Positions 1,161 through 64,000 of a stretch of DNA of 64,000 nt are shown here, piece after piece. Positions within the stretch are counted from its first letter, which is position 1. Every line of letters begins with the position of its first letter. The translations under genes were made by a program, and so were the position numbers. The stretch covers positions 96,001-160,000 of the forward strand of contig OY759726.1 in assembly GCA_963662625.1 (NCBI GenBank), written 5' to 3'. Below the pieces are notes generated by a model. That model saw only the letters and a list, made by a program, of their open reading frames with translations, was not told the DNA's origin and did not search any database. This stretch comes from Nitrosopumilus sp. GTDB taxonomy: Archaea > Thermoproteota > Nitrososphaeria > Nitrososphaerales > Nitrosopumilaceae.

Positions 1161-1298
1161 GGCGGGGACCTACCTGAACGTGGAAGCGGTGTGATTTTAG
1201 AGGGGGATTGAGGAAAAGTTGAGCTAGTTGTTAAAGTCGGGCATGCGGGGTCCAACGGCAACGCTCCGCGCCCGCCCGCTTTAAGGCGTGCGCACGAC

Positions 1299-1538: not shown

Positions 1539-1675
1539 AGAGTCAGGGCCGGGGCGTGGCGATAAAAACGTGCCGGGCTCGGCCGTAGCAGTCATTCCAC
1601 CAAAAGTCAATTACTCTAACTCCTCCTCATCGCCCGGCAAGCCAGGTGCGCGCACGGCCCGGTAATAAGTGATCA

Positions 1676-1752
1676 TGGTGGGATCGGCGGGATTTGAACG
1701 CGCGACCTCTGCGTCCCAAACGCAGAATCATGCCATGCTAGACTACGATCCC
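1676..1752 (-). tRNA. tRNA-Pro(TGG) with encoded CCA
   Basis: Reverse complement GGGATCG...CTGCG-TTTGGGA-CGCAG...TTCAAAT...CGATCCC-ACCA folds as a cloverleaf. Confidence 0.93.
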
Positions 1753-1827
1753 CCGTAACACCTCAGGGCTGCCCAATTTAAGCTTGACAGGCAATCATTT
1801 TAAGTGCTGGCCCCCGGACAGGAAACC

Positions 1828-4031: not shown

Positions 4032-4191
4032 GTGTGAGCCTCCGGCGGATCCAAATTAAATCATTCCTACGGGGGCCGGCCCCCCGGGACGCCAGGCGGC
4101 ACGGCCCGGCCACGGCCCGCGGATCGTGCCGGGTTGTGCAACAGGCCACGGGGCGGGGATCGTTTTTATCTGATCGGTGCCGACTTGTTGC

Positions 4192-4845
4192 ATGGACCGC
4201 CTTTACGCAGCGCTGCTGGCGGTGCTGGCCGGGTGCGCCTTTTCGGCGGCGGCGTTCGCGGAGGACGGCCGGCAGGTGCCAGAGTGGGTGAGGGACGCCG
4301 CCGTGTGGTGGGGGCTGGGCCTGGTGGACGACTCGGAGTTCTTCGGCCTGGTGGGGTTCCTGGTGGAGGAGGGCCTGATCGCGGCTGGGCCCGGGGCGCC
4401 GGAGATCCGGGACGCGTATGACCGGGGGTACGCCGACGGGCTTGCGGCCGGGGAGGACGCGCTATGGGAGTACGTGGACGGCTCGCTGGGGCGGCTGTCC
4501 TTCGTCGAGGGCGCGTCGCTGTCCGTGGTCACCGAGGGTTCCGCCTTTGGGAAGGGCGAGCGGGTGGCGGTGAGGATAGTGAACACCGGGACGGCGCCGC
4601 TGACGTTCGGGTCCGCCTCCTACGGGCTCGTGATCACCGGGCCGTCGGGCGGGGTGGTGTACGAGCCGGTCGCGGCGGCGGTGATGAGCCACCTGGGGCC
4701 GGGCGAGGAGGCGCGGGGCTCCTGGGACCAGATCCACAGCGACGGGCGGCCCGTGGGGAAGGGGCTGTACAAGATCCACGCCGGGGGGCACGACCAGAAC
4801 TTTAACGCCGTCGGCGGGTCGGCCACCGTGGCGGTACTGGGATAG
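4192..4845 (+). CDS. secreted protein with thaumarchaeal VPEWVR..A.WW domain and C-terminal Ig-like domain (copy 1)
   Basis: Signal peptide, VPEWVRDAAVWWGLGLVDDSEF motif, WDQ...GLYKI. Confidence 0.7.
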   Translation: MDRLYAALLAVLAGCAFSAAAFAEDGRQVPEWVRDAAVWWGLGLVDDSEFFGLVGFLVEEGLIAAGPGAPEIRDAYDRGYADGLAAGEDALWEYVDGSLGRLSFVEGASLSVVTEGSAFGKGERVAVRIVNTGTAPLTFGSASYGLVITGPSGGVVYEPVAAAVMSHLGPGEEARGSWDQIHSDGRPVGKGLYKIHAGGHDQNFNAVGGSATVAVLG

Positions 4846-4976
4846 GGCAGCCTGCCGCGGCCCGCGCGCGGGGCGCGTTGCGCGCCGTCCGGCACCGCGT
4901 TGCCGCCCGGGGGCGGGGTGGCTTCGAATGCTAATATACGCGTCCCCCGTACTGCCCCCATGGTGCCGCCCGGGGG

Positions 4977-5435
4977 ATGAAGACCGTCTACCTCGCAAAC
5001 CCGTACGGGTTCTCAGGGCAGCAGCGGGACGGCCCCCTGCGGGACCTGGTGCGGGTCCTGGAGGAGATGGGCGCCGAGGTGTGGGAGCCTTTCGCCCGCA
5101 ACAACCAGGGAGGCACGCTGGGGCCCGGCGCCGCATACCGCATAGGCCAGAAGGACATGCGCGACGTGCGGGATTCTGACGGGATCCTCGCGGTGGTCAA
5201 CGGCGTGCCCCCTGACGAGGGGGTCATGGTGGAACTGGGCATGGCGGTTGCCTGGGGGCGGGAGGTGTTCCTCTTCAGGGACGATTTCAGGAGGTGCACT
5301 GACAGCGGCGAGTACCCCCTCAACCTGATGCTGTTTGCGGGGCTCCCGGAAAAGGGGTGGCGCGACAGGTACTATACCGGAATAGACGATCTCCGCGATC
5401 CGGACGGGGCCCTGGCCAGGTGGCTCGCAGGCTGA
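4977..5435 (+). CDS. nucleoside 2-deoxyribosyltransferase family protein (copy 1)
   Basis: VYLANPYGFS...PPDEGVMVELGMA motif. Confidence 0.85.
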   Translation: MKTVYLANPYGFSGQQRDGPLRDLVRVLEEMGAEVWEPFARNNQGGTLGPGAAYRIGQKDMRDVRDSDGILAVVNGVPPDEGVMVELGMAVAWGREVFLFRDDFRRCTDSGEYPLNLMLFAGLPEKGWRDRYYTGIDDLRDPDGALARWLAG

Positions 5436-5638
5436 CAGGGCGGGGCCGCTTGGGAGATCCCCTCCCCCTGCCGGCTAGTGCGCGGGCAGCCGGCGCCCAG
5501 CCCGGGGCGTCCTGGCGCCTGATTTTTGGCCCATTTGCCGAATTCGTCCGGGCCGTGGCGCGTAAAATGACCCAAAGCAGGAAAAATGCGTGCCGCCTAA
5601 CACGCTTTTATTATAGTTAATATAAAAGAAGGCTGGAC

Positions 5639-23923: not shown

Positions 23924-24467
23924 GGATCATCCCTCGGAATCAATATGCTTTTAGTGCCATTAAATGTCAAACCTGCCACACCCCAAACAGATCTCCCCCA
24001 CAACCCACAACACCACGCCTTGCCGCCCAGAGCGGACTGCCGGCCACCGGTCCCCCCCATGTCCGTTACCCCATCCACGTTCCAGCTCCGCGCGTCGGCT
24101 TAAAAGCATGCCCTGCCGCCCCCCCCCCGGCACCCTGATTTGACGGCCAACACCCTAACTTAACGGCATGGGTGGATCCCCCCAAAACCGCCTAAGATTT
24201 ACCAGAGTACCTGCCGGGGTTCTGGCAAGTTACAGGGGCATGAAATCCCCTGGAAAGTGGGGGGACGTGAGTGACTTTGTCGCGGATCATACTGGCCATT
24301 TTAAGGCAAATGGCTCTGTTCAATCAGGGTGATGCGTCCTCCCCGCCGTTCTAAAGTGTGCCTTGTGGATCATCTCCCGGCCCGGCCACGGCCCGCGGAT
24401 CGTGCCGGGTTGTGCAACAGGCCACGGGGCGGGGATCGTTTTTATCTGATCGGTGCCGACTTGTTGC

Positions 24468-25121
24468 ATGGACCGCCTTTACGCAGCGCTGCTGGCGGTG
24501 CTGGCCGGGTGCGCCTTTTCGGCGGCGGCGTTCGCGGAGGACGGCCGGCAGGTGCCAGAGTGGGTGAGGGACGCCGCCGTGTGGTGGGGGCTGGGCCTGG
24601 TGGACGACTCGGAGTTCTTCGGCCTGGTGGGGTTCCTGGTGGAGGAGGGCCTGATCGCGGCTGGGCCCGGGGCGCCGGAGATCCGGGACGCGTATGACCG
24701 GGGGTACGCCGACGGGCTTGCGGCCGGGGAGGACGCGCTATGGGAGTACGTGGACGGCTCGCTGGGGCGGCTGTCCTTCGTCGAGGGCGCGTCGCTGTCC
24801 GTGGTCACCGAGGGTTCCGCCTTTGGGAAGGGCGAGCGGGTGGCGGTGAGGATAGTGAACACCGGGACGGCGCCGCTGACGTTCGGGTCCGCCTCCTACG
24901 GGCTCGTGATCACCGGGCCGTCGGGCGGGGTGGTGTACGAGCCGGTCGCGGCGGCGGTGATGAGCCACCTGGGGCCGGGCGAGGAGGCGCGGGGCTCCTG
25001 GGACCAGATCCACAGCGACGGGCGGCCCGTGGGGAAGGGGCTGTACAAGATCCACGCCGGGGGGCACGACCAGAACTTTAACGCCGTCGGCGGGTCGGCC
25101 ACCGTGGCGGTACTGGGATAG
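24468..25121 (+). CDS. secreted protein (copy 2)
   Basis: Translation identical to 4192-4845. Confidence 0.7.
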   Translation: MDRLYAALLAVLAGCAFSAAAFAEDGRQVPEWVRDAAVWWGLGLVDDSEFFGLVGFLVEEGLIAAGPGAPEIRDAYDRGYADGLAAGEDALWEYVDGSLGRLSFVEGASLSVVTEGSAFGKGERVAVRIVNTGTAPLTFGSASYGLVITGPSGGVVYEPVAAAVMSHLGPGEEARGSWDQIHSDGRPVGKGLYKIHAGGHDQNFNAVGGSATVAVLG

Positions 25122-25252
25122 GGCAGCCTGCCGCGGCCCGCGCGCGGGGCGCGTTGCGCGCCGTCCGGCACCGCGTTGCCGCCCGGGGGCGGGGTGGCTT
25201 CGAATGCTAATATACGCGTCCCCCGTACTGCCCCCATGGTGCCGCCCGGGGG

Positions 25253-25711
25253 ATGAAGACCGTCTACCTCGCAAACCCGTACGGGTTCTCAGGGCAGCAG
25301 CGGGACGGCCCCCTGCGGGACCTGGTGCGGGTCCTGGAGGAGATGGGCGCCGAGGTGTGGGAGCCTTTCGCCCGCAACAACCAGGGAGGCACGCTGGGGC
25401 CCGGCGCCGCATACCGCATAGGCCAGAAGGACATGCGCGACGTGCGGGATTCTGACGGGATCCCCGCGGTGGTCAACGGCGTGCCCCCTGACGAGGGGGT
25501 CATGGTGGAACTGGGCATGGCGGTTGCCTGGGGGCGGGAGGTGTTCCTCTTCAGGGACGATTTCAGGAGGTGCACTGACAGCGGCGAGTACCCCCTCAAC
25601 CTGATGCTGTTTGCGGGGCTCCCGGAAAAGGGGTGGCGCGACAGGTACTATACCGGAATAGACGATCTCCGCGATCCGGACGGGGCCCTGGCCAGGTGGC
25701 TCGCAGGCTGA
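25253..25711 (+). CDS. nucleoside 2-deoxyribosyltransferase family protein (copy 2, L->P)
   Basis: Identical to 4977-5435 except GILAV->GIPAV. Confidence 0.8.
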   Translation: MKTVYLANPYGFSGQQRDGPLRDLVRVLEEMGAEVWEPFARNNQGGTLGPGAAYRIGQKDMRDVRDSDGIPAVVNGVPPDEGVMVELGMAVAWGREVFLFRDDFRRCTDSGEYPLNLMLFAGLPEKGWRDRYYTGIDDLRDPDGALARWLAG

Positions 25712-25751
25712 CAGGGCGGGGCCGCTTGGGAGATCCCCTCCCCCTGCCGGC

Positions 25752-25968: not shown

Positions 25969-26273
25969 CCAGCCCCCGCAAAAGCCGGGCGCGGATCATC
26001 CCCCCGGCAAAAAAAAAATTCAACCCGCAAAAAACCGCACCCCGAAAAAATTGGATCAGGCCCGGGCCCGCGCGGCGCGTTCCAATCTTGAAGATTCGAA
26101 TTTCGAGGCGCGCCAACCCTGAAAATTAAATTTTTCCAGGGGATCGCCGGACGCCGGCCGTCTCCGGCAGGGCGGGGAAGCGCCGCGAGAGCGCCCCCCG
26201 GAACTCCCCGGGAACGGTCCCGGCGGAGGGCCTGAAAAAGCAGCCCGCCGGGATTCTTGCAAAGTCACTCCCG

Positions 26274-26445
26274 GGGAACGGTCCCGGCGGGACGGACGGG
26301 AAAACAACTCAAGGGAACGGTCCCGGCGGGACGGACGGGAAAACAACTCAAGGGAACGGTCCCGCCGGGACGGACGGGAAAACAACTCAAGGGAACGGTC
26401 CCCGGGAACGGTCCCGGCGGGACGGACGGGAAAACAACTCAAGGG
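26274..26445. repeat. 39-bp tandem repeat, ~4 copies
   Basis: gggaacggtcccggcgggacggacgggaaaacaactcaa at 26274, 26313, 26352 and ~26404. Confidence 0.92.
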
Positions 26446-26691
26446 CGCGCGGCGGCGTGATCCAACTCGGAAGAATTGAATTTCATGGGGCCAGGTTCTT
26501 TGTGGGGCCGGGATCCAATTTTTGGGCCGGGAGGGGAGCGCGCCGGGGAGCGGAAAAGTGTGCCATTTTCCTAATATAAAACCCTGCAAAAATTTTTGGG
26601 GGGCCGTTGGAATTTTAGGTGCATAAAATCAAGACCCGGGAAAAAAAATCAACCAGGGTCAAATAAAACGGGTAGGTGCATAATTTGCGGA

Positions 26692-27048: not shown

Positions 27049-27124
27049 GCAGTCGGGCAGCGCGTGTGGATATAAGGCCCGCCAGTCGCTGGACCACGTG
27101 CCAAATTGGCACGTGGTCAGGCCG

Positions 27125-27470
27125 GCGCGGATCCTCCCGCTAGTAGCCTGGGACGGACCGTCCCCGGTTCCGTCATGGGGCGCGGATCCTCCCGCTAGTA
27201 GCCTGGGACGGACCGTCCCCGGTTCCGTCATGGGGCGCGGATCCTCCCGCTAGTAGCCTGGGACGGACCGTCCCCGGTTCCGTCATGGGGCGCGGATCCT
27301 CCCGCTAGTAGCCTGGGACGGACCGTCCCCGGTTCCGTCATGGGGCGCGGATCCTCCCGCTAGTAGCCTGGGACGGACCGTCCCCGGTTCCGTCATGGGG
27401 CGCGGATCCTCCCGCTAGTAGCCTGGGACGGACCGTCCCCGGTTCCGTCATGGGGCGCGGATCCTCCCGC
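27125..27470. repeat. 55-bp perfect tandem repeat, 6 copies plus a partial
   Basis: gcgcggatcctcccgctagtagcctgggacggaccgtccccggttccgtcatggg with period 55 and no spacers. Confidence 0.95.
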
Positions 27471-27714
27471 CAGTCGCGTTGGGCACCCAACGATGGCGGC
27501 CATCTGGGCCGGAGGAGGGGGGGTTTCTTGGCCCTCCCGCTCAACTCGGGGGAATTGGGACGGCCGGGGATCCCCCCGACCACGTCCTAGAATGCCGGGG
27601 GAGCCAGGCAGGCCGCCCTCCCTGCCGCGCACTGCGGGCGGAGATGGGACGCCCCAGCTGGCCGGCCGTCGACGATGCTGGTTCTGGCCGGAGATGGCGG
27701 GTTGGTTTCTTATT

Positions 27715-49842: not shown

Positions 49843-49962
49843 CTGTTTTTCACCTTTTCAGCGTACTCCACACCGGCCTGCCTGTCAGCCGCCTTCGCGG
49901 TATTGCCGGTTTGAGTCCGCACGTCAGGTCGCGAAAAAAGGTTGGTTGGATTCCTGAAGGAA

Positions 49963-52627: not shown

Positions 52628-52775
52628 CTTCTATCTCCTGTATTTTCGCCCTCCACACCGGCCTGCCTGTCAGCCGCCTTCGCGGTATTGCCGGTTTGAG
52701 GATGAATGTCAGGTCACAAAAATAGAGGGTTCCACCGCCAAGTGGCGGGTGGTGTCGGGGCCGCCTGGCGGCCCG

Positions 52776-52964
52776 TCAGTCGAACAGACTGTAGAACTGG
52801 CTGTCTGTAAGACGTGGGACTTCGCGGGTCTCGGAGTACATGTTTGACACGTACCTGCCGTGTTCCGGAAGGTAGATGCCCTTCCCCGGAACGTATCTCC
52901 CGATGCCCTGCAGTATGCGGGCGACGTCCCTGTGAGAGTGGCCCTCTGCCACTGAAGTTGCCAT
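52776..52964 (-). CDS. 62-aa hypothetical protein directly behind a hammerhead
   Basis: AUG lies 1 nt after the predicted cleavage site. Confidence 0.55.
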   Translation of the reverse strand: MATSVAEGHSHRDVARILQGIGRYVPGKGIYLPEHGRYVSNMYSETREVPRLTDSQFYSLFD

Positions 52965-53010
52965 GGACCCCGTTCCGGGGTTTCGGCCATCAAGGCCTCG
53001 TCAGCATGGC
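52960..53010 (-). ncRNA. type I hammerhead ribozyme
   Basis: GCCAUG-CUGACGA-GGCC(UUGAU)GGCC-GAA-ACCCCG(GAA)CGGGGU-C-CAUGGC; full core, three perfect stems. Confidence 0.93.
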
Positions 53011-53049
53011 TTCGTTTAGCGAAAAAAGGGGGAGGGTCCCCCGGGGTGG

Positions 53050-53646
53050 CTACCGCCTGCCGCCCATGCCGTCCCGGAGCCTTTGCCAGCGGGACTTTTT
53101 CGGTTCCACGACCTTTTTGGCGCAGAACTCGAGCCGCCGGAGGACCCCGCGGGGGAGGCACTCTTCCAGGTCAGACCTGGACTCCCCCCGGAGCAGCTGC
53201 TCCAGAACCGCCTTGCACTCGGCCGGCCCCATGGCTTGGAATTGCTCCCTGTACCAATCGGAACCGCGGAAGTCCGGCGGGTTGCAGACCAGGCACTCCT
53301 CCTCGTACTCGTCCCCGTGGGGATTGACGTGGTCGTGCGCGTCCGCTTGATCCTTTTCGATCAGTTTGGCGCCCAGCAGGTTCTGCTCGACCACCCGAGC
53401 CGATGGGAGTTCCCTCCATCCGGTGCCGATTGGCTTCCCGGAGACTACGTCCGTCAGTACGTCGCCGTCACTTATGGCGACAACATCGTTCTTGCAATAA
53501 AATTTGCAGGTTTGGCCCTCTGGGCCGGCTTGGGCGCGTACGGCGTCGTCGAGGCCTAGCCTCTCCTGTACGTGCTTGCAGACGCTTTTGGTTAAGAACG
53601 TCCTATCTCCTATGGAGATTTGCTTCATGACTGTTTGTTTTGCCAT
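53050..53646 (-). CDS. hypothetical protein, paralog family B
   Basis: ISIGDRTF...VCK...KFYC N-domain; H..PHG...CLVC. Confidence 0.7.
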   Translation of the reverse strand: MAKQTVMKQISIGDRTFLTKSVCKHVQERLGLDDAVRAQAGPEGQTCKFYCKNDVVAISDGDVLTDVVSGKPIGTGWRELPSARVVEQNLLGAKLIEKDQADAHDHVNPHGDEYEEECLVCNPPDFRGSDWYREQFQAMGPAECKAVLEQLLRGESRSDLEECLPRGVLRRLEFCAKKVVEPKKSRWQRLRDGMGGRR

Positions 53647-53695
53647 GCGACGCCCGTGTCGGGCGTTTCGACCATTCAGGTCTCATCAGGCAGGC
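53642..53695 (-). ncRNA. type I hammerhead ribozyme
   Basis: GCCUGC-CUGAUGA-GACC(UGAAU)GGUC-GAA-ACGCCC(GACAC)GGGCGU-C-GCAUGGC. Confidence 0.92.
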
Positions 53696-53743
53696 TGTCT
53701 GGGCGTCTTTCAAAAATTAAATACTCGGGGGTCCAACATCAGG

Positions 53744-53827
53744 TGGTGGGGGCTCAGTTGTCGTAATATCCAACTGTGTTCATCATGGAACAGTCAGTTG
53801 TCGTTTCATTCATCATCGCCCTCACCA
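53744..53827 (-). ncRNA. box C/D sRNA
   Basis: Terminal stem, AUGAUGA (C), 12 nt, CUGA (D'), 7 nt, AUGAUGA (C'), 22 nt, CUGA (D). Confidence 0.8.
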
Positions 53828-53896
53828 TCCAAGCCCGTCCCAAGGGACGGCCATCCCAAATCGAACACTAAAATAACTCAGGGGCCGCCTGGAGGT

Positions 53897-53967
53897 GGCG
53901 AGGGGTCAGATTTAGAATCAAATCACCATGTGATTCATAGTGCAAATCGTTCATCATCCCCCTCGCC
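53897..53967 (-). ncRNA. box C/D sRNA
   Basis: 9-bp terminal stem GGCGAGGGG/CCCCUCGCC, AUGAUGA, 12 nt, AUGA (D'), AUGGUGA (C'), 13 nt, CUGA. Confidence 0.8.
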
Positions 53968-54350
53968 TTGGAAACTTCAGGCCTGAATCGCCCCAAAACC
54001 GTGTACCTCCTGACGGGGGACACCTCTCCCCGGCTCCGGGAAATGTCCCTGTGACGGGAATGTTTGGTCGGCATGAAAAATCCAGCAGGGAAGATAGGGG
54101 GTTTACTAGGGTCCGATTTTGTGTTTGGTGTTTTGTTCCTATTTCGACCGGAACGCCCACCATAACCGCGAAGGATACTAGGGAGTTCGGGTTTTGTCGG
54201 AGCCCGCAGACGTCCTCCCCCGCAGGGTATATGGATCGCGCCGTCCCGGGGTTGCCAACGGGGCCACTGGCTGCCGGCGCGGCCGCGCCGTACAGGAACG
54301 TGGCACGTGCCACCAGGAATCCAAGACCCGCGTTAAATATCACTGCCGTT

Positions 54351-54650
54351 GTGTCCAGTGTGCCTGGGGCCATATTCAACACCGGGAGGAAGAGGAGGCT
54401 GCTGGACTCCCCAGACTCGCTGACCCCCAGGCAGCGGGCCAGGATCACCTACGCGGCAAAGGCGTCCATCCGCTCGGCGGTGGCTGACATGAGGGCAATC
54501 CTGGAGTCCGACAACGAGGCCCTGGGGTCGTTCCTGCTGGGGGAGCTTGCCTCCCTGCCTGGGACAGGGAGGATGCCGGGGGATCCGGAGGCCGGGGACA
54601 CAGTCGTGGACGACGGGGAGGAGTTCTGGACCGGCGCGGTGGAACTGTGA
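54351..54650 (+). CDS. small hypothetical protein
   Basis: Plausible helical ORF after an AT-rich box; start uncertain. Confidence 0.45.
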   Translation: MSSVPGAIFNTGRKRRLLDSPDSLTPRQRARITYAAKASIRSAVADMRAILESDNEALGSFLLGELASLPGTGRMPGDPEAGDTVVDDGEEFWTGAVEL

Positions 54651-54837
54651 GGCGTTGAATGCAGGCTCAGTGGTTGTGCGTGCCCGCGTGCCGAATCTGC
54701 CGACGCGCCTTCAGCGCCCTGTGGGGCCCAGCCTTCCCCGCGGGAACGCGTCCCGCATTCCCAAGCCACCCCAACAGGAACCAAGTCTGACCACCCACAT
54801 CATTAATTACCGTGCCCCACCCAAAATCACCAGAAAC

Positions 54838-55410
54838 ATGATCGCAGTTGAGATATACTATGTGCTTTTGGGCGCCGGAGTGGGCGCATTCACCTCGTTT
54901 CTAGGGAACTGCGCACTGGCAAAAATTACCGAAAGGAAGGAAACCGAAAGGACAAAGTCGGTGCTGAAAAAGGAGTTCCGGTGGATGTACAAAATACTGC
55001 TGAACAACCTTGTGGTTTGTGACATAATCAGGAATTCAGAACCCGGAGAGCGTGACGATTTCACAAAGTATTCTGTCCTTGGGCACATTCTGGTGGGCGG
55101 CGCCGTCCTGGACTCGTTAATGTCAAGCGGCTCCATACTGAGGCTCAAGCCCGAAGAGATCGGAAGGGTGAAAGCCATAGGAAATAACGTGGCCGCCTAC
55201 GACAACATGGTGGAATGGCTCCGGAACCGGCCGGAAAGGTTCAGCCCGGACGAATTGCTGGACACCATGAATAAGATAGAATCCGAGACCAAGCGAACCA
55301 TAGAATCGCTGGACTCGTTCAAATCCGAATGGATCGACATGGAGAAGGCCAAAAGGGAGGCCGGGGAGGAACTGAAACGCCACTCCGAGGATTGGACCCC
55401 GTTCTCCTAA
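54838..55410 (+). CDS. hypothetical protein with N-terminal TM
   Basis: MIAVEIYYVLLGAGVGAFTSFLG; lower GC. Confidence 0.65.
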   Translation: MIAVEIYYVLLGAGVGAFTSFLGNCALAKITERKETERTKSVLKKEFRWMYKILLNNLVVCDIIRNSEPGERDDFTKYSVLGHILVGGAVLDSLMSSGSILRLKPEEIGRVKAIGNNVAAYDNMVEWLRNRPERFSPDELLDTMNKIESETKRTIESLDSFKSEWIDMEKAKREAGEELKRHSEDWTPFS

Positions 55411-55513
55411 ACCCCGGTGCCTACAAGGCCAGCCTGGGAGGGGCTTCAAAGCCCGCTTTTAAACGGCGCGTGCCAACTATGCTGGTAACCGGAAGTGGCA
55501 CCGGTGGGTGGAA

Positions 55514-56461
55514 CTACCGCAGTCCGTAAGGCCCGACAAACCGTTCCCCGTCAAAGTGGATCATGTGGTCCGGGTCGTCGGCAACCCACACCTCGGTCTC
55601 CCACGATATGTCAGACGCGTATTTTCTCATGGTGTCCCTGTCTGCAAATGCCGTAACGTATACGATTCCGGCCTTAGCCCCAGAGAACATCCCCTGAAGC
55701 TCCCTTCTCCTCTTTGTGTCTACAGGGCCATGGCTTGTGACGGCCTCAATGACAAAAATCCATTCCCGCACCGTGTCGTACATCACCATGTCCGGCATCT
55801 TGCCGTGTGGATCCAGATTGACCCCGAGTTTTGAGAGTAAATTCCGGTCAAAGTACGCGAACTTTTTTGCAGTGTCGCCGACATATACGGGCACATGCTT
55901 CTTCATGAACCTGGAGGTGAATTCGACGTAGATGTCCCTCACGAGGTGGCTGTGTTCCCCGGCAGACAGACGAACCGTCTCCGCCGGTGAAACGTGTATG
56001 GAAACCGCCCCGTCCCTCCTCCTGTATGGGGTTCCCCCATGCCGCAATGGGTGCGTTGCAAGGTACATTTCGAGGTGCTTCTTCCAGGTCTTTTCCCCGT
56101 AGCTTTGCATCAGCTTTAGCGATTCCGGGGTGATCTGGTAGACGGTCTTGCCGCTGTTGGTTGGCCTGTCCGGATTGTCCGGGTTTTCTGATATCAGCGA
56201 CGCGTGCAGGAACTGGTGGATCGTCTGCCTCCGCACCGTCTCACGTGAGTTCGGCGCGTACCTCTTTCCGTAATGTTCCGCAAAGAAGTCCATCATCGGC
56301 GTGATCCCACGGAGCGGGTTTTTTGCCTTCTTCCATGTCCCGTCAGGCCTCAAGTCCAGCAGCGCAAGAAGCGTGAGCGCCGACCTGACGTTTTGCTGTC
56401 TTTTCGGGAGCCCGATCTGTTTCAGGACGTCCAATGCCTCCTCTACCCTTGGATGGATCAA
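55514..56461 (-). CDS. BsuBI/PstI family type II restriction endonuclease
   Basis: YAPNSRETVRRQTIHQF, HGKMPD, IEAVTSHGP and ISWETEVW motifs; TTG start overlaps the MTase stop. Confidence 0.93.
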   Translation of the reverse strand: MIHPRVEEALDVLKQIGLPKRQQNVRSALTLLALLDLRPDGTWKKAKNPLRGITPMMDFFAEHYGKRYAPNSRETVRRQTIHQFLHASLISENPDNPDRPTNSGKTVYQITPESLKLMQSYGEKTWKKHLEMYLATHPLRHGGTPYRRRDGAVSIHVSPAETVRLSAGEHSHLVRDIYVEFTSRFMKKHVPVYVGDTAKKFAYFDRNLLSKLGVNLDPHGKMPDMVMYDTVREWIFVIEAVTSHGPVDTKRRRELQGMFSGAKAGIVYVTAFADRDTMRKYASDISWETEVWVADDPDHMIHFDGERFVGPYGLR

Positions 56462-57975
56462 TGCCTCCCCGCCACCTGGCCGGACAGCAGTCCGCCTACC
56501 GCCCCGTCTATCTCGTCTTGGCCCATCCAACACGCGGTGCGCCGCCCAAGGCTCCCAATCTGCCTCTTGGACGGGTACCTCAGGTACCTCAAATCTGCGG
56601 CGTTGACCTGCGTGCTCCCGTTGAACTGTCGAAAATAGGCATCGACCGCGCTGGAGTTTAGAAAGGCCCACAGTCCTTGCGCCACATTGCCCGCAAGTGG
56701 ACCGCCGCCACTGTGAAAATAATTCACCCTGTTTTCAAAGCCCACCAGATCGGAATCGTGCTCACTGCCGCTCCACACGGATGCCGTGACTCTCCTCCTC
56801 TGTTCTACCGTGGTGAAGCGTTTCACCAGGACGTAGTGGCCATTGGCGACTAGGAGTTTTTTTGACCTTTCGCTTGGCGCGATAAAGTTACAGTGCTTTG
56901 TGTTCCTGCCAGGAAACTGTGTCTTCCCGTCAGATATGTTGAATGGCCTGACCAGGGGGACCGCGTCCTCCCCGTCAGAGAATCTGAGGTCGTCGCTTAT
57001 CCTGAAATCCACCACCTTTCCGGTGGAGACCTCGACGCCAATGTCGCTGAGCGTGCATGGGAGCCGGCGCATCATCTCGGATATCCGCGCCCCAGCCTCG
57101 TCTGGCACTATGTGTATGAACATGTGCGGATCGTCGCCGAACACGATGTCGGATTTTTCCACGCGCCTTTGCACCATGTCGTCCGCCGGGCCAACACTGG
57201 CGGACACCACGGCCTTCCTGTTGGCGCCGTTCTTTCTGGCGCATATTATCACGTTCTCCTGGAGCACCCCGTCGTCACTGAACGATGATGTCCTCGACCT
57301 GAACAGATGGATCCTTTTCGGGGACATCGATCCGAGGAAATCCCTCCTGAAAGGATGGAAATAGGCGCCGTTGCAGAAGCTCCGTGGCGAGATGAATGTC
57401 ATCTGGCCTCCCGTGCCTAGCAGGTTGTGGGAGATGGCGATGAACGCTGAATACATGTTTGTCGTCTGTAACCCGACGCCGCGCAGCGTACCATACGTGT
57501 CTGATGACACGTTGATCTTTTGGTACGGGGGGTTCATTATGACATGCGTGAAACCTCCGGAGAGGGCGTCAGCCGAGGCCGCATAGTCATCAATAAAGTC
57601 CCTCTTCTCCAGGATGCCGGAGAACTCCACCCCGACGTCCCGACACGCGTCGCCGGCATGCCCCAGCGCCGCGTCTATGCCGCCGGATAGTGCGCCATCT
57701 ACCTCGTAGGCCACCACATGTATCGAGTCAGGCAGTCGCCTCCTGTCACATATGCGCTGGACGCACGCGGTGAAGAGGGAACCGGCGCCGGCCCCTGGAT
57801 CAAGGATCCGGATGTCCTTTTGGGAATAGTCCATCATCGATGCCATGAGGTTGGCGACGGAGGGGCTGGAGAAGTACTGCCCGAGCTTTTCCTTTTTTGC
57901 AAGATTTTTGCCTAGCGATTGCCTTGCCGTGCAGGTTCGTTCCAGGAACCCGACGCCCTGCGCTGTGGCGGTCAC
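56458..57975 (-). CDS. N6-adenine DNA methyltransferase (BsuBI/PstI, Eco57I-like)
   Basis: LGQYFS, LDPGAGAG, NPPY and FNGSTQVNA motifs. Confidence 0.93.
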   Translation of the reverse strand: MTATAQGVGFLERTCTARQSLGKNLAKKEKLGQYFSSPSVANLMASMMDYSQKDIRILDPGAGAGSLFTACVQRICDRRRLPDSIHVVAYEVDGALSGGIDAALGHAGDACRDVGVEFSGILEKRDFIDDYAASADALSGGFTHVIMNPPYQKINVSSDTYGTLRGVGLQTTNMYSAFIAISHNLLGTGGQMTFISPRSFCNGAYFHPFRRDFLGSMSPKRIHLFRSRTSSFSDDGVLQENVIICARKNGANRKAVVSASVGPADDMVQRRVEKSDIVFGDDPHMFIHIVPDEAGARISEMMRRLPCTLSDIGVEVSTGKVVDFRISDDLRFSDGEDAVPLVRPFNISDGKTQFPGRNTKHCNFIAPSERSKKLLVANGHYVLVKRFTTVEQRRRVTASVWSGSEHDSDLVGFENRVNYFHSGGGPLAGNVAQGLWAFLNSSAVDAYFRQFNGSTQVNAADLRYLRYPSKRQIGSLGRRTACWMGQDEIDGAVGGLLSGQVAGRH

Positions 57976-59762
57976 CCCGTGTCTCCCCCAGCCCCGGCAA
58001 GGCCGTTCAGGAAGTCACTTATTCGCGCGTTGGCGTCGGGAAGATGCACCGGGATTGGAAGGCCGTCTATTCCGGTAGCGCTGTGGCTTATGAGCAGCCA
58101 CTGGCCCACGCCAAACCGCAGCGATTCCTGCAACGTTTCGTCAGATAGCCCGAATGCCTCCTGTATTTTTTCCCTGTCCGATGCCCGCGGGAGCTTGCTC
58201 ACAAAGTACGTGTGCGGCTGCCCGAGTATGTTGGTGTCCAGGTACACTATCCTCTGGGTGGCTATCCCTATGCCCAGGCCGTACTTTCTCCCACGTCTCG
58301 CGAGCTGCTCCCCCATATGCTTTGATTCCTTCATCCCGGGCTGTTTGTCATCCTGCGCGATGAATTGGTCAGCCTCGTCGTAGATGAACGAGACGGGCGG
58401 CGATATGATCCCTCCCTCCCTTCTTGAGCGGAGCATACGCATTCCAAGCGTGTTTGAGAATTCCCTGACCTTCACGTCGTCTGTGTCCTGTATGATGTAA
58501 AGCGAGCTGGTTGAATCCCGGTTGAGATCCATAACCATGTCGCCGCCTGAGATCTTGTATTTTTGATCCACCTTCTCAACGTTTGAGAGCGTCTTCTTGG
58601 TGTCATTCAGCTTCAAAATAACCCTGAGCCTTAGGTTGTCTGCCTTTGCATGCGAACTCTGGGTAAAGTCATGGCTGTCCAGTTTTGTGATCAGGGTCTC
58701 TATGTCACTGACGGTGCATTTCCTACGGCCGCATCCATCCAGTATTGAAATGAGTTCCCGCGAGGCAGCTGATGTGTCTGCTGAGTCGACGATGTCCCGG
58801 AGCAGTTTTGCAATAGTCTGATCGTCTGGAATCAACACTTTGATCTTTCCACCCATCAGCATGCTTTTGACTGGCTTGTGGAACATCTCTCGTTTGCCAG
58901 CAAGCATCTTTGGGAGTACCGTGGTCTTCACTATGTCCATGGCTGCAGTGTCTGCATTGCTCGCAGATGCGTCACCCCAGAAACGATGCACGGAGCTTGG
59001 GACTGCATCGTATGAAAGAAACACGATGTACGCGTCATCGCTGCCGTACAGTACGTCTGCGAGCAGTATGCCGTATTCCCCCATGAGATCGTAGATCACG
59101 GCCTTGACGGAACCGCGGCTTTCAAATATCTTGGACGTGACTGTGCTCAGAAGGTTTGACTTGCCGGCATTGGTGTATGCGAACACCCCAAAGTGCGTCC
59201 GTATCATGCTGTCCCACAGCGCGAGTATCTCGACGTCTTTCATGTTTGCGAGGGTTCCGAGCACTACGGTGCCGTCCTGACCCTGTAGGTCATGGTTTAT
59301 GATCCTACGCGTCCACTCGGAGTTGAGCAGCCTGGCCCGCTCGCCAGGCATGGGGATGTTGGTCTCTGGTGCCATCTCGGGCTCTCTGCCGTCCATGGAG
59401 CGAGGCCTTGTCACCTCAAACCTGCTTGGCACTGCATCGCACACTATCTTGGTTGTGTCCTCGACCGGCTTGTTCTGGTTCCAGTCCTTGGATGCGCTCA
59501 TTGCGGCTTCTTCCACGAATCCCGGATACCCGTCCATGCTTGCCATCATGGCATAGTGTGTGGGCATTACAGACGTTATCCTCATCACGCTGTAGTGGTC
59601 GACGTCTTTGTTGCTTGAAAAGTTCCTCACGGCCACCAGCGACCCTTCCCGGATCGCATTCATGTGGGAACGCACGAAAGGAAACCAGATCGTAAACCCC
59701 ATGCTTGTCTGGCTTGACTTTCTCATGTCCATCAGCGTTCCTGATATTCCATCTTCAAACAA
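57972..59762 (-). CDS. HerA/DUF87 family ATPase
   Basis: Walker A AYTNAGKS, Walker B FIYDEAD, ARRGRKYG..IATQR. Confidence 0.88.
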   Translation of the reverse strand: MFEDGISGTLMDMRKSSQTSMGFTIWFPFVRSHMNAIREGSLVAVRNFSSNKDVDHYSVMRITSVMPTHYAMMASMDGYPGFVEEAAMSASKDWNQNKPVEDTTKIVCDAVPSRFEVTRPRSMDGREPEMAPETNIPMPGERARLLNSEWTRRIINHDLQGQDGTVVLGTLANMKDVEILALWDSMIRTHFGVFAYTNAGKSNLLSTVTSKIFESRGSVKAVIYDLMGEYGILLADVLYGSDDAYIVFLSYDAVPSSVHRFWGDASASNADTAAMDIVKTTVLPKMLAGKREMFHKPVKSMLMGGKIKVLIPDDQTIAKLLRDIVDSADTSAASRELISILDGCGRRKCTVSDIETLITKLDSHDFTQSSHAKADNLRLRVILKLNDTKKTLSNVEKVDQKYKISGGDMVMDLNRDSTSSLYIIQDTDDVKVREFSNTLGMRMLRSRREGGIISPPVSFIYDEADQFIAQDDKQPGMKESKHMGEQLARRGRKYGLGIGIATQRIVYLDTNILGQPHTYFVSKLPRASDREKIQEAFGLSDETLQESLRFGVGQWLLISHSATGIDGLPIPVHLPDANARISDFLNGLAGAGGDTG

Positions 59763-59768
59763 TTGAAA

Positions 59769-61592
59769 CTACCTCCCAAAATTGCGCCTTATTTCCCTTA
59801 ATGTGTTTATCAGCGGCCGCGATCGGAACTTTATCTCGGAGCTATCGAGCAGTTTTCTCACGCTGTCCCTCATGGACTTTGCCCCCTGGTCTGCCTTGTG
59901 GAGGGGGTCGGGATACCCTATCATCTCCGAGAAGTGGTTTTTCGTGAGCGTGTCAAGCAGGAAATAAGTCACCAGTTGTCCCCTGTTTGTAGTCTTGTTT
60001 GACTGGTAGAAGAACGGCCTCATCTCGCCGGTGCTGGCGTCACTGATCTCGATCCGTTCTGACTCCCCGTCCCATTCCGGAAATGCGAGCCTGTCTATGA
60101 ATATGGCGTGGCCGGTAAGCGGGGACTCGGCACTGCGCCTGGTGTAAAACTGCGCTATGGATCTCAGGAACAGGCATTCCGGCCTGGCTATCCCCCCAAA
60201 CGTGCCGCCAAACTCCTCCTTCCCGCCTCGCTCCTCAACGCGCAGTGTCATGAATGTGGAGTCAAACTCTATCGTGCCCCATGGGCTGTTCAGCCCGTCG
60301 TCTATGTACGGAAGCATCTCGCAGAATACGCGGTCTGTAGGGGGCAGCACTCCGAATGTTTTGCCTGACAATTGCCTGTATTTTCCAAAATGCCGGCACA
60401 CGCCAATGTAGTTTTTTGTCAGGTATGCAGATGCCGAGTCTTTTGCTATCCCGGTCAGCAGTATCTTCCTTGACCAGCATTCTTCTATCAGTGCCCGCAG
60501 CCCTACAGCGATGAGGAACCTCACGTCGTCGGGCGACATCCATTTTGCCACTTTCCTGCCCGCGTCAACCGCCTCGTATTTGAGAGCGTTCTCCCTCTTG
60601 TCGAGGAATATGGCCTTGCAGATTCCCTGGAACATGGACTTTGTCTTCTCCCAGCTCTTGTACGGTTCAATCTTTTGGGTTATGTCGCCAGACGGTCCGA
60701 GCTCCACTATTCCGTTCCCCGCCAGCCCCCGAACCACGCGCTCGAGCCTCTCGCGCCTTATTCCTGTTTCGGATGAGATGTCTTCCATGCGGATGGCCCC
60801 TGGTCCTTTCTCGTGCAGGAACCGCATGACTGATGACCTTTCCGTGAATTTCTTCGTGCTTGGGATCCCCAGTTCAGAGTTGAATGGGTGGGCCTGGGCT
60901 ACAATTACGTCCTGCTTGCTAAACACCATGCCATCAGACATCGCGCAACCCACAAGTCGAACCTTGTCTGCGCCAAAGTCAGTGTAGCCCAGCATGCCGC
61001 TCAGGCTGTTGTCTATCAATATTATGTCCGGGCGGTCCAGGTTTGAACTCGTGGCCGAATTGTACGCAAGGAAGATCTCGGCAAGCTGCATCATCGGGAG
61101 GTGCATGCTCGTAAGCTCTATCTTGTCTGACTCGGATACCGCGAACATGTTTGCCTCCCTGCCGTCGTTTACCTCCAGTATCCTGCTGTATGGAATTGGC
61201 ACGAATGCGACCATGCTCACGTCCTTTTCTATCTCCCACCGCCTGTATTCCACAGTCGCCTCCCCGCCAGACAGGGACAGCACCCCCTTTGCGCCATATG
61301 CCCCCCCGTAAAACGAGATGAACTCCCCCGAGCTGTGCTTGTGGCAGCTCCCATCCACCGCAACAAAGTTCAGCTCGCGTTTCCCAAAAAAGCCCTCGGT
61401 CTCGTCTGCCACCATGTTAACAAATTCCCTGTCCGCGAGCCTTCCTCCCATGTTAACTGTCAGGTCCCTGAAAAAATCATTGTAAAACTCCCTTGCGTTT
61501 GATGAGCCAAGCCGCACGGTTTCCTCATATTCGTCCTGGGCCTGATCCAAGCTTCTCTTGTATGACGAATAAATCTCGGAGATCCGCCCCAT
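59769..61592 (-). CDS. NurA-like nuclease with inserted wHTH
   Basis: VAVDGS, ILIDNSL, GIAKDS and GYPDPLHKAD motifs. Confidence 0.82.
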   Translation of the reverse strand: MGRISEIYSSYKRSLDQAQDEYEETVRLGSSNAREFYNDFFRDLTVNMGGRLADREFVNMVADETEGFFGKRELNFVAVDGSCHKHSSGEFISFYGGAYGAKGVLSLSGGEATVEYRRWEIEKDVSMVAFVPIPYSRILEVNDGREANMFAVSESDKIELTSMHLPMMQLAEIFLAYNSATSSNLDRPDIILIDNSLSGMLGYTDFGADKVRLVGCAMSDGMVFSKQDVIVAQAHPFNSELGIPSTKKFTERSSVMRFLHEKGPGAIRMEDISSETGIRRERLERVVRGLAGNGIVELGPSGDITQKIEPYKSWEKTKSMFQGICKAIFLDKRENALKYEAVDAGRKVAKWMSPDDVRFLIAVGLRALIEECWSRKILLTGIAKDSASAYLTKNYIGVCRHFGKYRQLSGKTFGVLPPTDRVFCEMLPYIDDGLNSPWGTIEFDSTFMTLRVEERGGKEEFGGTFGGIARPECLFLRSIAQFYTRRSAESPLTGHAIFIDRLAFPEWDGESERIEISDASTGEMRPFFYQSNKTTNRGQLVTYFLLDTLTKNHFSEMIGYPDPLHKADQGAKSMRDSVRKLLDSSEIKFRSRPLINTLREIRRNFGR

Positions 61593-61623
61593 CGGGGTTA
61601 GTCCGCAGGCCTCGTATTAAAGA

Positions 61624-62613
61624 TCATTCGTCTGAGCGTTCCAAGCATCTTCTCATCCTAGCTCCCAGGATCATGGCGAAGAGGGGTGGCATGGCGTTGC
61701 CTATCTGTTTCATCTTGCTGTATTTGGAACCGGAAAACCCAAACCAGTCTGGAAACCCCTGCAGCCTGGCGGCCTCCCTGACAAAAAGTGTGCGCCTCCT
61801 TCCGTCACGGGTCCGGATCCGGTGCATGTCGCTTGAGTGCCCTCCCAGGTTTCTGCATGTCAGTGTCCGCGCTGGTCTGCCACGATCCAGGTCGCGTGCC
61901 CGGCGACATTGGGATGCCATTTCGTATGCCGATATGTATCGGTCCATCTCGGGCGTCAGGTATGACGGTTCCTCCCTCTCCGCTCTGGGGATGTTTTTCA
62001 GCGCCTCCCCGGCGGTCACCTGTACCCCGAGCCCGGACGGGGGCAGGTATCCACCGTGATGCCCTATTGCAATCACGCGTTCCCGGCTTTGCGGAACCCC
62101 GTAATCAGAGCAGTTTGCGACCGACACGTCCACAGAGTACCCGAGTTTTTCGAGCCTTTTCATCGATGATGTGAAATAGTCCCTGTTTCTGTACAGCATC
62201 CCGCGCACGTTCTCAAAGACCCACATCCTGGGCTTGAGTTGTTTCACGGCCGCTACGAATGAGGGAATTCCATTCCTGTCGTCCATCGGGCCCATCTGCT
62301 TGCCGCGCACGCTGAATGGCTGGCACGGGGGTCCGCCTGCCACTATGTCTGCGTATGGAAAGTCGTACCCCGGAGTGATGGATCCGTTCACGCAGGTTCC
62401 CCTCAGGTTGGAATTATATGTGGCGCAGCAGTCCGGGTTGCTGTCTATTCCGATCACCTTGAAACCTGCCGCCTCCAGTCCCAGGGACAGCCCGCCTGCG
62501 CCGGAATATATGTCAAGCACCGCGTATCTTGGGTTTTTTTTTGGCCTCAGAATTTTATCCAGTTCCGCCGCATAGTTTTTCTTGAGTGCGCACGGGTCGA
62601 TCAAGGTTTGCAA
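61624..62613 (-). CDS. C5-cytosine DNA methyltransferase
   Basis: DIYSGAGG, GGPPCQPFS, ENV, Q.RER, RLQGFP and IGNA motifs. Confidence 0.95.
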   Translation of the reverse strand: MQTLIDPCALKKNYAAELDKILRPKKNPRYAVLDIYSGAGGLSLGLEAAGFKVIGIDSNPDCCATYNSNLRGTCVNGSITPGYDFPYADIVAGGPPCQPFSVRGKQMGPMDDRNGIPSFVAAVKQLKPRMWVFENVRGMLYRNRDYFTSSMKRLEKLGYSVDVSVANCSDYGVPQSRERVIAIGHHGGYLPPSGLGVQVTAGEALKNIPRAEREEPSYLTPEMDRYISAYEMASQCRRARDLDRGRPARTLTCRNLGGHSSDMHRIRTRDGRRRTLFVREAARLQGFPDWFGFSGSKYSKMKQIGNAMPPLFAMILGARMRRCLERSDE

Positions 62614-62911
62614 TACATCTCATCTCAACAAAAAATAATTTATTAGTATTCTTTAAAAGCAGGACAGGGGGAGTCTACGGCACATAATTCCCCGTGGGGC
62701 AGTCTGGCAGATCGGGATCTAAACGCCAACACCAAGCACGCCGGCCCCGCAGAAACTAGCCTTCAAGCACAGGAACCACGGAAGGCACTTTCTTGCAGAT
62801 AGGCACCGGGTGTGACGCCATACTTGTGATTATCCATGTCGTGATGGAGTGGATGGGGCACACACAGCCCATGTGGAAAAAATCAAATAACAATGGAGGA
62901 TAGGTTGGGTA

Positions 62912-63535
62912 TTGGCCACCATCTTTATTTCGCATAGCAGGAAAGATGAGGAGCTAGTGCGCGCAGTGAAAAAAGCATTGGAGAATGTGGGACACACTCC
63001 AGTGATTGAAGAGTTGATTCCAACCGAAGAACAGGAAGCGGTACCATACGAAGAGATTCAAACAAACGTGAAAGAAAGCGAATTTCTTTTTCTGTTTTTG
63101 ACTGATAACGTGGTGGCCACGGAGTTTACGCAGAATTGGGTGTGCCACGAAGCAGGACTGGCAGCGGCGTACTCGAAAAGACTTTTTGTGTTTGAGAGGG
63201 CTGGAACCCCAATAAAATTCCCAATTCCATATCTTACGGATTATGCATTGTTTGACCCAGAGGACCCAGAAGATATATTGGGACTGCAAAACCTTGCCAA
63301 GGATTTGGGGAAACTTAGACGCGATCTCCTGACTGCAGGCGGTGGGGCGGCGTTGGGGGCAACGTTGGGGCCGGTTGGGATGGTGTTGGGGGCAGTGGGG
63401 GGTTATCTGATAGGCCCAAAGCCACCAAAGCCACTTACTGTAAAATGCGATCACTGCAATGTTGGTTTCAATTACTATTCTATAGAAAAAGCATTCAGGT
63501 GCCCGTCTTGTAGAAGAGACATCGTCCTGGGGTGA
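62912..63535 (+). CDS. TIR-domain protein with Gly-zipper segment and Zn ribbon
   Basis: IFISHSRKD...WVCHEAG; GGGAALGATLGPVGMVLGAVGG; CDHC..CPSC. Confidence 0.8.
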   Translation: MATIFISHSRKDEELVRAVKKALENVGHTPVIEELIPTEEQEAVPYEEIQTNVKESEFLFLFLTDNVVATEFTQNWVCHEAGLAAAYSKRLFVFERAGTPIKFPIPYLTDYALFDPEDPEDILGLQNLAKDLGKLRRDLLTAGGGAALGATLGPVGMVLGAVGGYLIGPKPPKPLTVKCDHCNVGFNYYSIEKAFRCPSCRRDIVLG

Positions 63536-63539
63536 CAAT

Positions 63540-63842
63540 GTGGAAACGGTGACCCGGCGTGAATATGCTCATGATGCTGAACTCGTGTTTGCCATACTTC
63601 TACCCATCCTCAGCAAGCTCTATGATATAAAAAATATCCACAAAAAGATCAAATGTGTGGAGGTGTCTTCTGGTGCGTCCTTGTTTTCTTTTGGGGAGAC
63701 GTTTGAGGTTTCTGTCGCTGCGAATGATGGTGGTTCTGTTGTCAGGGTGAGGGCAAAATCAAAAGTCCGCTGGAACGTGACAAGCAACGTGGAAGGAAAA
63801 GCGGAAGAACTTCTTGATTTGCTAGGGAAAAATTTGGGTTAA
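63540..63842 (+). CDS. small hypothetical protein, partner of the TIR gene
   Basis: Starts 4 nt after the TIR stop; same low GC. Confidence 0.6.
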   Translation: METVTRREYAHDAELVFAILLPILSKLYDIKNIHKKIKCVEVSSGASLFSFGETFEVSVAANDGGSVVRVRAKSKVRWNVTSNVEGKAEELLDLLGKNLG

Positions 63843-63862
63843 GCCCTGCCAAGAACGCTGTC

Positions 63863-64000
63863 CTACCCCGCGAGCCTCGACTCTATCGCCCGCTCGAACA
63901 CCCAGAACGGCTGCGCGCCGCTCACGATCTCCCACCCGGCGCCGTCGCTGCCTACCAGGAATCCAGGCGTGCCCGTGATCCCGTATTCTGAGCCGTCGGA
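63863..64000 (-). CDS. DsbA/thioredoxin family protein, C-terminal end
   Basis: GITGTPGF...SGAQPF read manually; GC returns to host level. Confidence 0.8.
   Translation of the reverse strand, partial: SDGSEYGITGTPGFLVGSDGAGWEIVSGAQPFWVFERAIESRLAG

Follow-up and report, generated by a model that had tools for sequence, protein, structure and literature searches.

The genes for box C/D guides are commonly regarded as part of the core housekeeping set of thermophilic archaea. An archaeal box C/D sRNA carries C, D', C' and D boxes, a terminal stem and two guides of ~12 nt, its rRNA complementarity begins 2–3 nt from D or D', and its host encodes the machinery; the two genes described here largely share these traits. 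Unlike the usual archaeal sRNAs, they belong to a mesophilic Nitrosopumilaceae host with few sRNA candidates, one of their spacers is 22 nt long, and they are located in accessory DNA and tied to open reading frames (ORFs) led by hammerhead ribozymes.

Of the published systems that we came across, the MITE-like sRNA element of Pyrobaculum calidifontis and the replacement of guides in that genus come closest (PMC6009581). As far as the available text of that report goes (Lui et al. 2018, PMC6009581), these elements appear to resemble the present family in being multi-copy, in their near-consensus C/D boxes and varying guides, in their highly conserved flanking inverted repeats and in their residence in unstable, non-aligning regions; a role in sRNA gene proliferation has been proposed for them. 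The two sets also differ: in the present family most internal boxes are canonical and many guides address conserved rRNA sites, whereas the Pyrobaculum guides are described in the same text as orphans or as having non-conserved tRNA targets (PMC6009581). In addition, a TATA-like box follows each unit here, the units are either coupled to hammerheads or transposases or arranged in regular arrays, and Pyrobaculum belongs to a different phylum-level group from the present host. Clustered or polycistronic sno/sRNA genes and guide replacement in Pyrobaculum, so far as the accessible parts of the sources describe them, likewise offer tandem genes and an exchange of guides in a kept scaffold (PMC6009581, PMC12045711). 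In contrast to such clusters, the arrays found here have a period of ~146–234 nt and a promoter-like box per unit, and the terminal unit at this locus appears to feed a ribozyme-led mRNA. A literature search found no paper linking box C/D sRNAs with Nitrosopumilus. By term search, Thaumarchaeota do not occur in the searchable text of a 2021 review on archaeal C/D guides, nor do ribozymes or sRNAs in that of a survey of thaumarchaeal integrated elements (PMC6563490); among papers that name both hammerheads and Thaumarchaeota, none appears to treat such ribozymes.

The window (the whole 64,000-nt stretch of DNA that was analysed) belongs to a genome, G000, that consists of a single 1.86-Mb contig with 63% G+C and is 99.5% complete; its rRNA has only 52% G+C, which indicates a mesophile. 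On the minus strand lie two small genes, 1a and 1b (Table 1, with unit coordinates read by hand from the sequence ruler). We interpret them, with a probability of about 0.68, as real box C/D rRNA methylation guide genes that belong to a modular accessory family in Nitrosopumilaceae, and functional rRNA methylation guides are the simplest account of their sequences.

An earlier note, made from the letters alone, had described two adjacent minus-strand box C/D units with terminal stems, and the boxes, the 9-bp stems and the folds confirm this. Both genes have the C and D boxes and the K-turn-forming terminal stem of box C/D RNAs. The internal D'/C' boxes are canonical in 1b; in 1a, D' is AUGA and C' is degenerate, and an internal K-loop is plausible, since the A standing in for C in D' has a possible partner in the U at C' position six. 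As to the guides, proposed to be mostly 12–13 nt, both D' guides are indeed 12 nt long, but the D spacer of 1b departs from this length. Folded with the terminal stem closed, 1a reaches −31.1 kcal/mol (z −6.3) and 1b −24.6 kcal/mol (z −4.9), values matched by none of 200 shuffles in either case. Scanned over its full 1.86 Mb with strict criteria for boxes and spacing, the genome yielded four candidates, 1a and 1b among them; relaxed box criteria gave ten, mostly implausible. Against Rfam, both genes stay below threshold with generic C/D matches (best 19.9–20.6 bits, gathering scores 39–45), as is expected for guide-variable sRNAs of an unsampled lineage.

Table 1. Features of the sRNA locus and its flanks, in window coordinates.
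Feature	Position	Strand	Remarks
Segment upstream of 1a	54092..54289	-	97% identical to segment upstream of 2a
Box C/D sRNA gene 1a, type-1 scaffold	53897..53967	-	covariance model 67.9 bits
1a 5' stem	53967-53959	-	9-bp terminal stem, perfect
1a C box, RUGAUGA type, exact	53957-53951	-	
1a D' guide, 12 nt	53950-53939	-	
1a D' box AUGA	53938-53935	-	
1a C' box, degenerate	about 53926-53920	-	
1a D guide	53921-53910	-	10-12 nt, set by C' placement
1a D box CUGA, exact	53909-53906	-	
1a 3' stem	53905-53897	-	
AT-rich TATA-like box between 1a and 1b	53869..53876	-	~43 nt upstream of 1b; identical at locus 2
Short G+C hairpin, predicted 1b leader	53834..53849	-	kept at locus 2 and in decayed copy
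Box C/D sRNA gene 1b, type-2 scaffold	53745..53826	-	covariance model 69.9 bits
1b 5' stem	53826-53818	-	9 bp, one A-C mismatch
1b C box, exact	53816-53810	-	
1b D' guide, 12 nt	53809-53798	-	
1b D' box CUGA	53797-53794	-	
1b C' box, canonical	53786-53780	-	
1b D spacer, 22 nt	53779-53758	-	archaeal norm 12 nt
1b D box, exact	53757-53754	-	
1b 3' stem	53753-53745	-	
TATA-like box	53716..53723	-	22 nt after 1b, ~21-28 nt before hammerhead
Type-I hammerhead, core intact (CUGAUGAG, GAAA, GUC)	53643..53697	-	begins about 53695-53697
First ORF of block, 198 aa (ORF198)	53050..53646	-	without Pfam or PHROG family
Second hammerhead	about 52955-53012	-	cut 1 nt before next AUG

The antisense search of the genome's own rRNA that the earlier note had proposed as a check yielded contiguous targets of 10–11 nt. 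It covered the 16S and 23S rRNAs and the tRNAs of G000, with significance taken from 2000 shuffled guides; three of the four guides of 1a and 1b match rRNA in the canonical register (shuffle frequencies 0.3–0.9%), and all their matches begin at position 2–3 from the D or D' box. From position 2 onwards, the D' guide of 1a forms 11 contiguous pairs with LSU 855–865 (equalled by 6 of 2000 shuffles), the very word quoted in the note as complementary and there putatively assigned to a conserved archaeal/eukaryal helix-35 motif. The N+5 rule, which had been said to give a Cm, falls on C858, the predicted site of methylation. A second LSU site, 616–627, also fits this guide, matching 11 of its 12 positions; the mismatch is internal. 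To judge from its pairings, the D guide of 1a is an orphan without a convincing target, its best match being SSU 897–908 with nine Watson–Crick pairs, two G-U pairs and one mismatch.

For 1b, which the note could not assign to a target, both guides found one. The D' guide forms ten pairs with SSU 1346–1355 from position 3 (equalled by 11 of 2000 shuffles), with N+5 at C1348, a site without variation in all seven of the rRNAs compared. We take this residue to be C1407 in E. coli 16S numbering, and to lie in the decoding centre, where the upper end of helix 44 is universally conserved. The long D spacer has two matches in the LSU: its ten box-proximal positions pair with 1612–1621 (nine Watson–Crick pairs and one G-U; N+5 = C1615), a site kept in six of seven family rRNAs, and its eleven distal positions pair perfectly with 1586–1596 (equalled by 18 of 2000 shuffles), which is a variable rRNA region. 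Alternatively, the spacer could form one interrupted duplex on LSU 1579–1596, consisting of 5 bp, a U-U mismatch and a G-U wobble, and then 11 bp, with N+5 at C1581. We favour the 1612–1621 reading, in which the distal part would serve as accessory pairing; extra rRNA pairing is known for eukaryotic snoRNAs. Both guides of 1b end in ACGACAA, as the note had seen, because both targets hold the same five-letter core. Elsewhere in the genome, the 11-nt guide matches (858877, 567251 and 952041) are no more than chance would give, and the DNA at 858877 has no Rfam family.

The protein machinery is present in G000: the genes for fibrillarin and Nop5 are adjacent at 523–525 kb, and L7Ae is encoded as well. 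With these host proteins the RNAs would assemble into sRNPs. The predicted sites of 2'-O-methylation are LSU C858 for the D' guide of 1a, SSU C1348 for the D' guide of 1b and, most likely, LSU C1615 for the D guide of 1b; in the last case the distal half of the spacer would touch the same rRNA again, over 11 bp, 20 nt further upstream. Could the units instead be TIGR-like dual-spacer guides for a DNA-targeting Nop-domain (Tas) effector? TIGR-Tas arrays, in the accessible part of their description (PMC12045711), are tandem dual-guide units, often on mobile DNA, with an evolutionary Nop-domain RNP link and a stated relationship to box C/D snoRNPs, and the family described here shares two guides per unit, tandem arrays in some genomes and a setting in mobile or accessory DNA. 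However, no Tas or other Nop-domain gene lies nearby, and a genome-wide search for Nop domains gave a single match, the canonical Nop5 (524 kb) beside fibrillarin. The guides match rRNA, and the repeat anatomy is another one, with stem-closed units of 67–99 nt and full K-turn C/D boxes as against alternating 8–12-nt repeats and 9-nt spacers, so that we regard a TIGR-like identity as extremely improbable.

A second locus at 1.8086–1.8104 Mb of G000 repeats the arrangement, with the upstream segment, unit 2a, a TATA-like box and hairpin, unit 2b, a TATA-like box, a hammerhead and an ORF in this order; in addition, a third unit, 2c, again of type 2, precedes an ORF198 copy. An alignment of the two loci shows 170 identities over the 175 positions of scaffold and flanks (stems, boxes, spacer and promoter-like elements), but the guide interiors match at just 13 of 41 and 23 of 61 positions; the combination of conserved scaffold and divergent interiors indicates that guide regions were replaced within the scaffold. 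A decayed copy of the tandem pair at 1742855–1743000 (plus strand) keeps the hairpin and has guides resembling those of unit 2a, with mutated C and C' boxes and a barely recognisable second unit. These decayed boxes indicate that copies can be lost. A search of sequencing runs for the region returned three DNA runs, all of one study, and no RNA run; the contigs of these runs that align here are for the most part pieces of the paralogous locus.

Homology to locus 2 flanks the sRNA genes of the window on both sides, at 54092–54289 (Table 1) and, with 93% identity, at 52770–53762. Both this homology and the high G+C stop near 54290, where we place the head of the island on sequence grounds. Two same-genus genomes (97% and 99% complete) share 1.5–13.1 kb and 21.5–25.7 kb of the window at 65–80% identity, and over 26–60 kb they share nothing except one 75-nt motif. 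The comparison with relatives, also called for in the earlier note, found no syntenic copy in either of them. A position of 1a and 1b within accessory DNA, not at its outer edge, is supported by the sequence.

The family extends beyond this genome, with a patchy distribution in Nitrosopumilaceae. A 14-nt word comprising stem and C box occurs in 20 of 401 Nitrosopumilaceae genomes, compared with at least 4 for the reversed control; this tally takes in two unpublished genomes, G281 and G251, both judged to be chance coding hits. Inspection gave true members in ten genomes (G000, G002, G103, G120, G392, G394, G395, G408, G412 and G034, the last with a variant C box). A covariance model was built from 14 family units, over which the terminal stem is 91% paired with compensatory changes at four of its nine pairs; the covariation score was equalled by none of 500 shuffles, and slid controls were only 29–62% paired. 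In G000 the model finds seven sites, namely the five units, the decayed copy and a weak site at 285616–285684, and in G103 it finds 13 matches. Among the 151 genomes that are at least 90% complete, scores of at least 42 bits occur only in G000, G002, G034 and G103, and the overall tally of 33 of 151 includes two unpublished genomes, G100 and G116, without inspection.

Nine lower-tier loci, drawn from eight of 29 genomes and including the weak G000 site, were inspected. In six of the nine there is a distinct sRNA, its D guide shared by several genera and by a G000 candidate at 1032414; two (in G147 and at 285616–285684 of G000) have another conserved sRNA in common, and one, in G200, looks family-like. 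By their sequences, the G000 sites 1032414 (plus strand) and 285616–285684 (minus strand) are probably core host sRNAs of Nitrosopumilaceae. Their appearance bears on a reading that the earlier note had held open, that 1a and 1b are ordinary host sRNA genes at the edge of an element, alongside which insertions accumulated. The conserved rRNA sites addressed by the guides would fit such genes, IS elements and cassettes may favour promoter-rich or hairpin-rich intergenic DNA, and mobility and duplication of sRNA genes are known in Pyrobaculum, according to the available text of PMC6009581. We nevertheless consider it quite unlikely: the truly conserved single-copy sRNAs, with one D guide in six of nine inspected loci and at 1032414, look different, homology to locus 2 lies on both sides of 1a and 1b, and 26–60 kb of the window are missing from the two same-genus genomes. 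Moreover, covariance model and word search found no family copy in the same-genus genome G001, and in G002 the family units are confined to a small AT-rich contig with hammerhead cassettes.

Within the accessory family, the guides look like rRNA guides. Among 39 distinct guides, matches to rRNA of at least 9 nt were found for 15 (shuffles 4.4%) and of at least 10 nt for 9 (shuffles 0.8%), nearly all starting at position 2–3; the pattern behind the 39 guides omitted the type-1 scaffold units (1a, 2a, G394), and for guides of G002, G034, G120 and G395 the rRNA came from a proxy, the closest genome available. The sites include a word of the peptidyl-transferase region, SSU words of the helix-31 region and an LSU domain IV word. 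The core of the SSU C1348 guide recurs in G002, in G034 and in four tandem units of G392, with N+5 always on the same C. A guide common to unit 2c of G000, G103 and G412 forms a 10-nt pairing with the anticodon arm of tRNA-Asp.

Searches further afield gave little that resembles the family. Neither the guide pattern nor the scaffold pattern had a match in viral contigs. A scan of metagenomes with the scaffold pattern returned 26 stretches, mostly G+C-rich coding DNA and none with family flanks or a hammerhead; one of them (L061) looks like an unrelated C/D sRNA. The SSU-guide pattern gave 19 stretches in the genome collection, 2 archaeal and 17 bacterial, and the bacterial ones are about what chance would yield for 18 fixed bases by our own estimate.

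The units occur in three contexts. Regular tandem arrays are found in G103 (at least 11 units, period ~146–160 nt) and in G392 (period ~234 nt); the G103 array, at G103:C2:117575-119175 (L067, L089), has one scaffold with differing guides and a TATA-like box after each unit. Single units are followed by a TATA-like box and then by a probably leaderless ORF, which encodes an IS6-type transposase (DDE_Tnp_IS240) in G394, G395 and G408; in G412 its product is a SWIM protein, and a second site in G408 has an HTH protein. The ORF downstream of the G034 unit is SWIM-like by eye. The third context, a module of sRNA, TATA-like box, hammerhead and ORF, has three occurrences in G000 and four on a single AT-rich contig of G002.

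At the window locus, the hammerhead begins 49 nt after the end of 1b, in agreement with the ~50 nt that the earlier note had estimated. From the D box of 1b through the TATA-like box at 53716..53723, 58 of 58 positions are identical at locus 2. We infer a promoter role for both TATA-like boxes from their sequence and placement; upstream of unit 1a, inspection of the sequence revealed no obvious TATA box. The first hammerhead scores 19.9 bits with Hammerhead_1, under the gathering score of 34, whereas ribozymes at the homologous position on the G002 contig score 35.4, 33.8 and 28.2 bits in Rfam, each sRNA there ending ~40 nt before the ribozyme. The predicted cut falls between 53649 and 53648, 2 nt ahead of the AUG at 53646 that opens ORF198, whose sole homologue found is a paralogue in the same genome. 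Together with the second hammerhead (Table 1), this arrangement would imply ribozyme-made, nearly leaderless mRNAs with a 5'-OH. Type-I hammerheads in which cleavage after GUC leaves 1–2 nt before an AUG number five in G000 and five on one G002 contig, and are located at both window sites, at G000 1808610–1810240 and at L020 (G002) 158–2519 (minus strand).

The regular junction between sRNA and ribozyme invites another explanation, in which the units are K-turn or L7Ae-binding cis modules of the ribozyme-led cassettes, for example capping the 3' end of the preceding RNA or regulating the following one, and the rRNA complementarity is incidental. The spacing of ~40–50 nt is fixed at three G000 junctions (1b, 2b and 2c) and four in G002, unit 2a has short 9-nt spacers with weak targets, and L7Ae is reported, in the accessible part of PMC5539422, as an mRNA binder. 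Against this, matches between guides and rRNA are ~9-fold (at least 9 nt) to 28-fold (at least 10 nt) more frequent than in shuffles and in canonical register, and the same scaffold is found in the cassette-free arrays of G103 (at least 11 units) and G392, which makes a purely cis-acting role very improbable.

The earlier note had further suggested that element-borne guides may retune host rRNA or titrate L7Ae. Such mobile-element cargo, altering the host ribosome to the benefit of the element or soaking up L7Ae, would fit units that sit within species-specific DNA, are duplicated with new guides in a second island, have one target in the decoding centre, and recur beside hammerhead-ORF cassettes and transposase genes (downstream ORFs: three DDE_Tnp_IS240, one SWIM and one HTH). 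The island itself, however, holds no recognisable virus, plasmid, conjugation or integrase genes by Pfam and PHROGs, which among its minus-strand genes recognise only an ArdC-like fragment, a JAB domain and a nuclease; a six-frame search of the whole G000 genome found no match to Pfam Phage_integrase (tyrosine recombinase). The family guides match conserved rRNA sites as ordinary guides do, the same SSU guide is found in four genera and three contexts, which fits selection at the level of the host, and no pairing of at least 10 nt links the guides to the sense transcripts of either island. The IS element was also considered as the carrier, and at 11 further IS6-type transposase loci the covariance model found no family sRNA (0/11; a loose box scan gave 1/11), so the IS is not a general carrier. 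Neither retuning of the ribosome nor titration of L7Ae found support, and we regard cargo of this kind as unlikely.

Our preferred reading, methylation guide genes of an accessory family, can be put together as follows. The unit of the family consists of a TATA-like box, a short leader, a conserved 9-bp terminal stem, canonical boxes and exchangeable guide interiors, and would be transcribed as a small RNA. The TATA-like box after each unit would drive the next gene, which is another sRNA in the arrays and a transposase gene in some genomes; here it would drive the hammerhead, whose self-cleavage would release a nearly leaderless mRNA. The gene family appears to duplicate, to swap guides and to occupy variable DNA. 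More tentatively, the unit of TATA-like box, leader and C/D sRNA could itself be a proliferating module that spreads guides patchily, swaps interiors by recombination and makes its downstream promoter available to accessory or selfish genes, among them IS6-type transposases and hammerhead-led leaderless ORF cassettes. If so, ribosome modification in mesophilic archaea would be partly an accessory, horizontally variable trait.

What makes the locus worth attention is that most of the recognisable guides of a mesophilic ammonia oxidiser lie in species-specific DNA, duplicated with swaps and physically linked with transposase genes and self-cleaving ribozymes. Provided that these guides are expressed, close relatives would differ, according to their accessory genes, in rRNA methylation, for instance in the decoding centre. 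The module of sRNA, promoter, hammerhead and AUG would be a tractable case of ribozyme-made leaderless mRNAs, and the scaffold would be a natural device for guide exchange that bears on the origin of new sno/sRNA specificities.

Several further elements of the region deserve mention. The 75-nt motif occurs in the window at 52651–52725 and 49866–49940, in minus-strand sense and just upstream of ORFs, and in G002 just upstream of sRNAs (L020 about 285–365, 700–775, 1434–1508 and 1965–2040); it is 83% identical between genomes of 63% and 39% G+C. The copy at 52651–52725 has no Rfam match, and its nested-stem fold is not above shuffles (z −0.75). A repeat of ~300 nt is present in six copies of 85–97% identity (window 28776, 36575, 38986, 43191, 45711 and 47359) that span the 5' ends and upstream regions of six minus-strand island ORFs; a further copy lies outside the window at 164.2 kb of the genome, and paired G+C hairpins stand just upstream of four copies. 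The tail of the minus-strand block contains tandem repeats of 39 nt and 55 nt (26210–26454 and 27069–27563) with copies up to 100% identical. Farther out, a 1374-bp direct repeat of 99.9% identity (window 4102–5475 and 24378–25751) flanks a 20-kb stretch with a 2579-codon gene made of internal repeats of ~204 nt and 75 nt, which has many paralogues in the genome. On the other side of the island head, 54300–64000 has a lower G+C of 52–58% and defence-type genes, among them a BsuBI/PstI-type restriction enzyme, an Eco57I-like methylase, HerA-like and NurA-like genes, a C-5 cytosine methylase and a TIR-domain protein.
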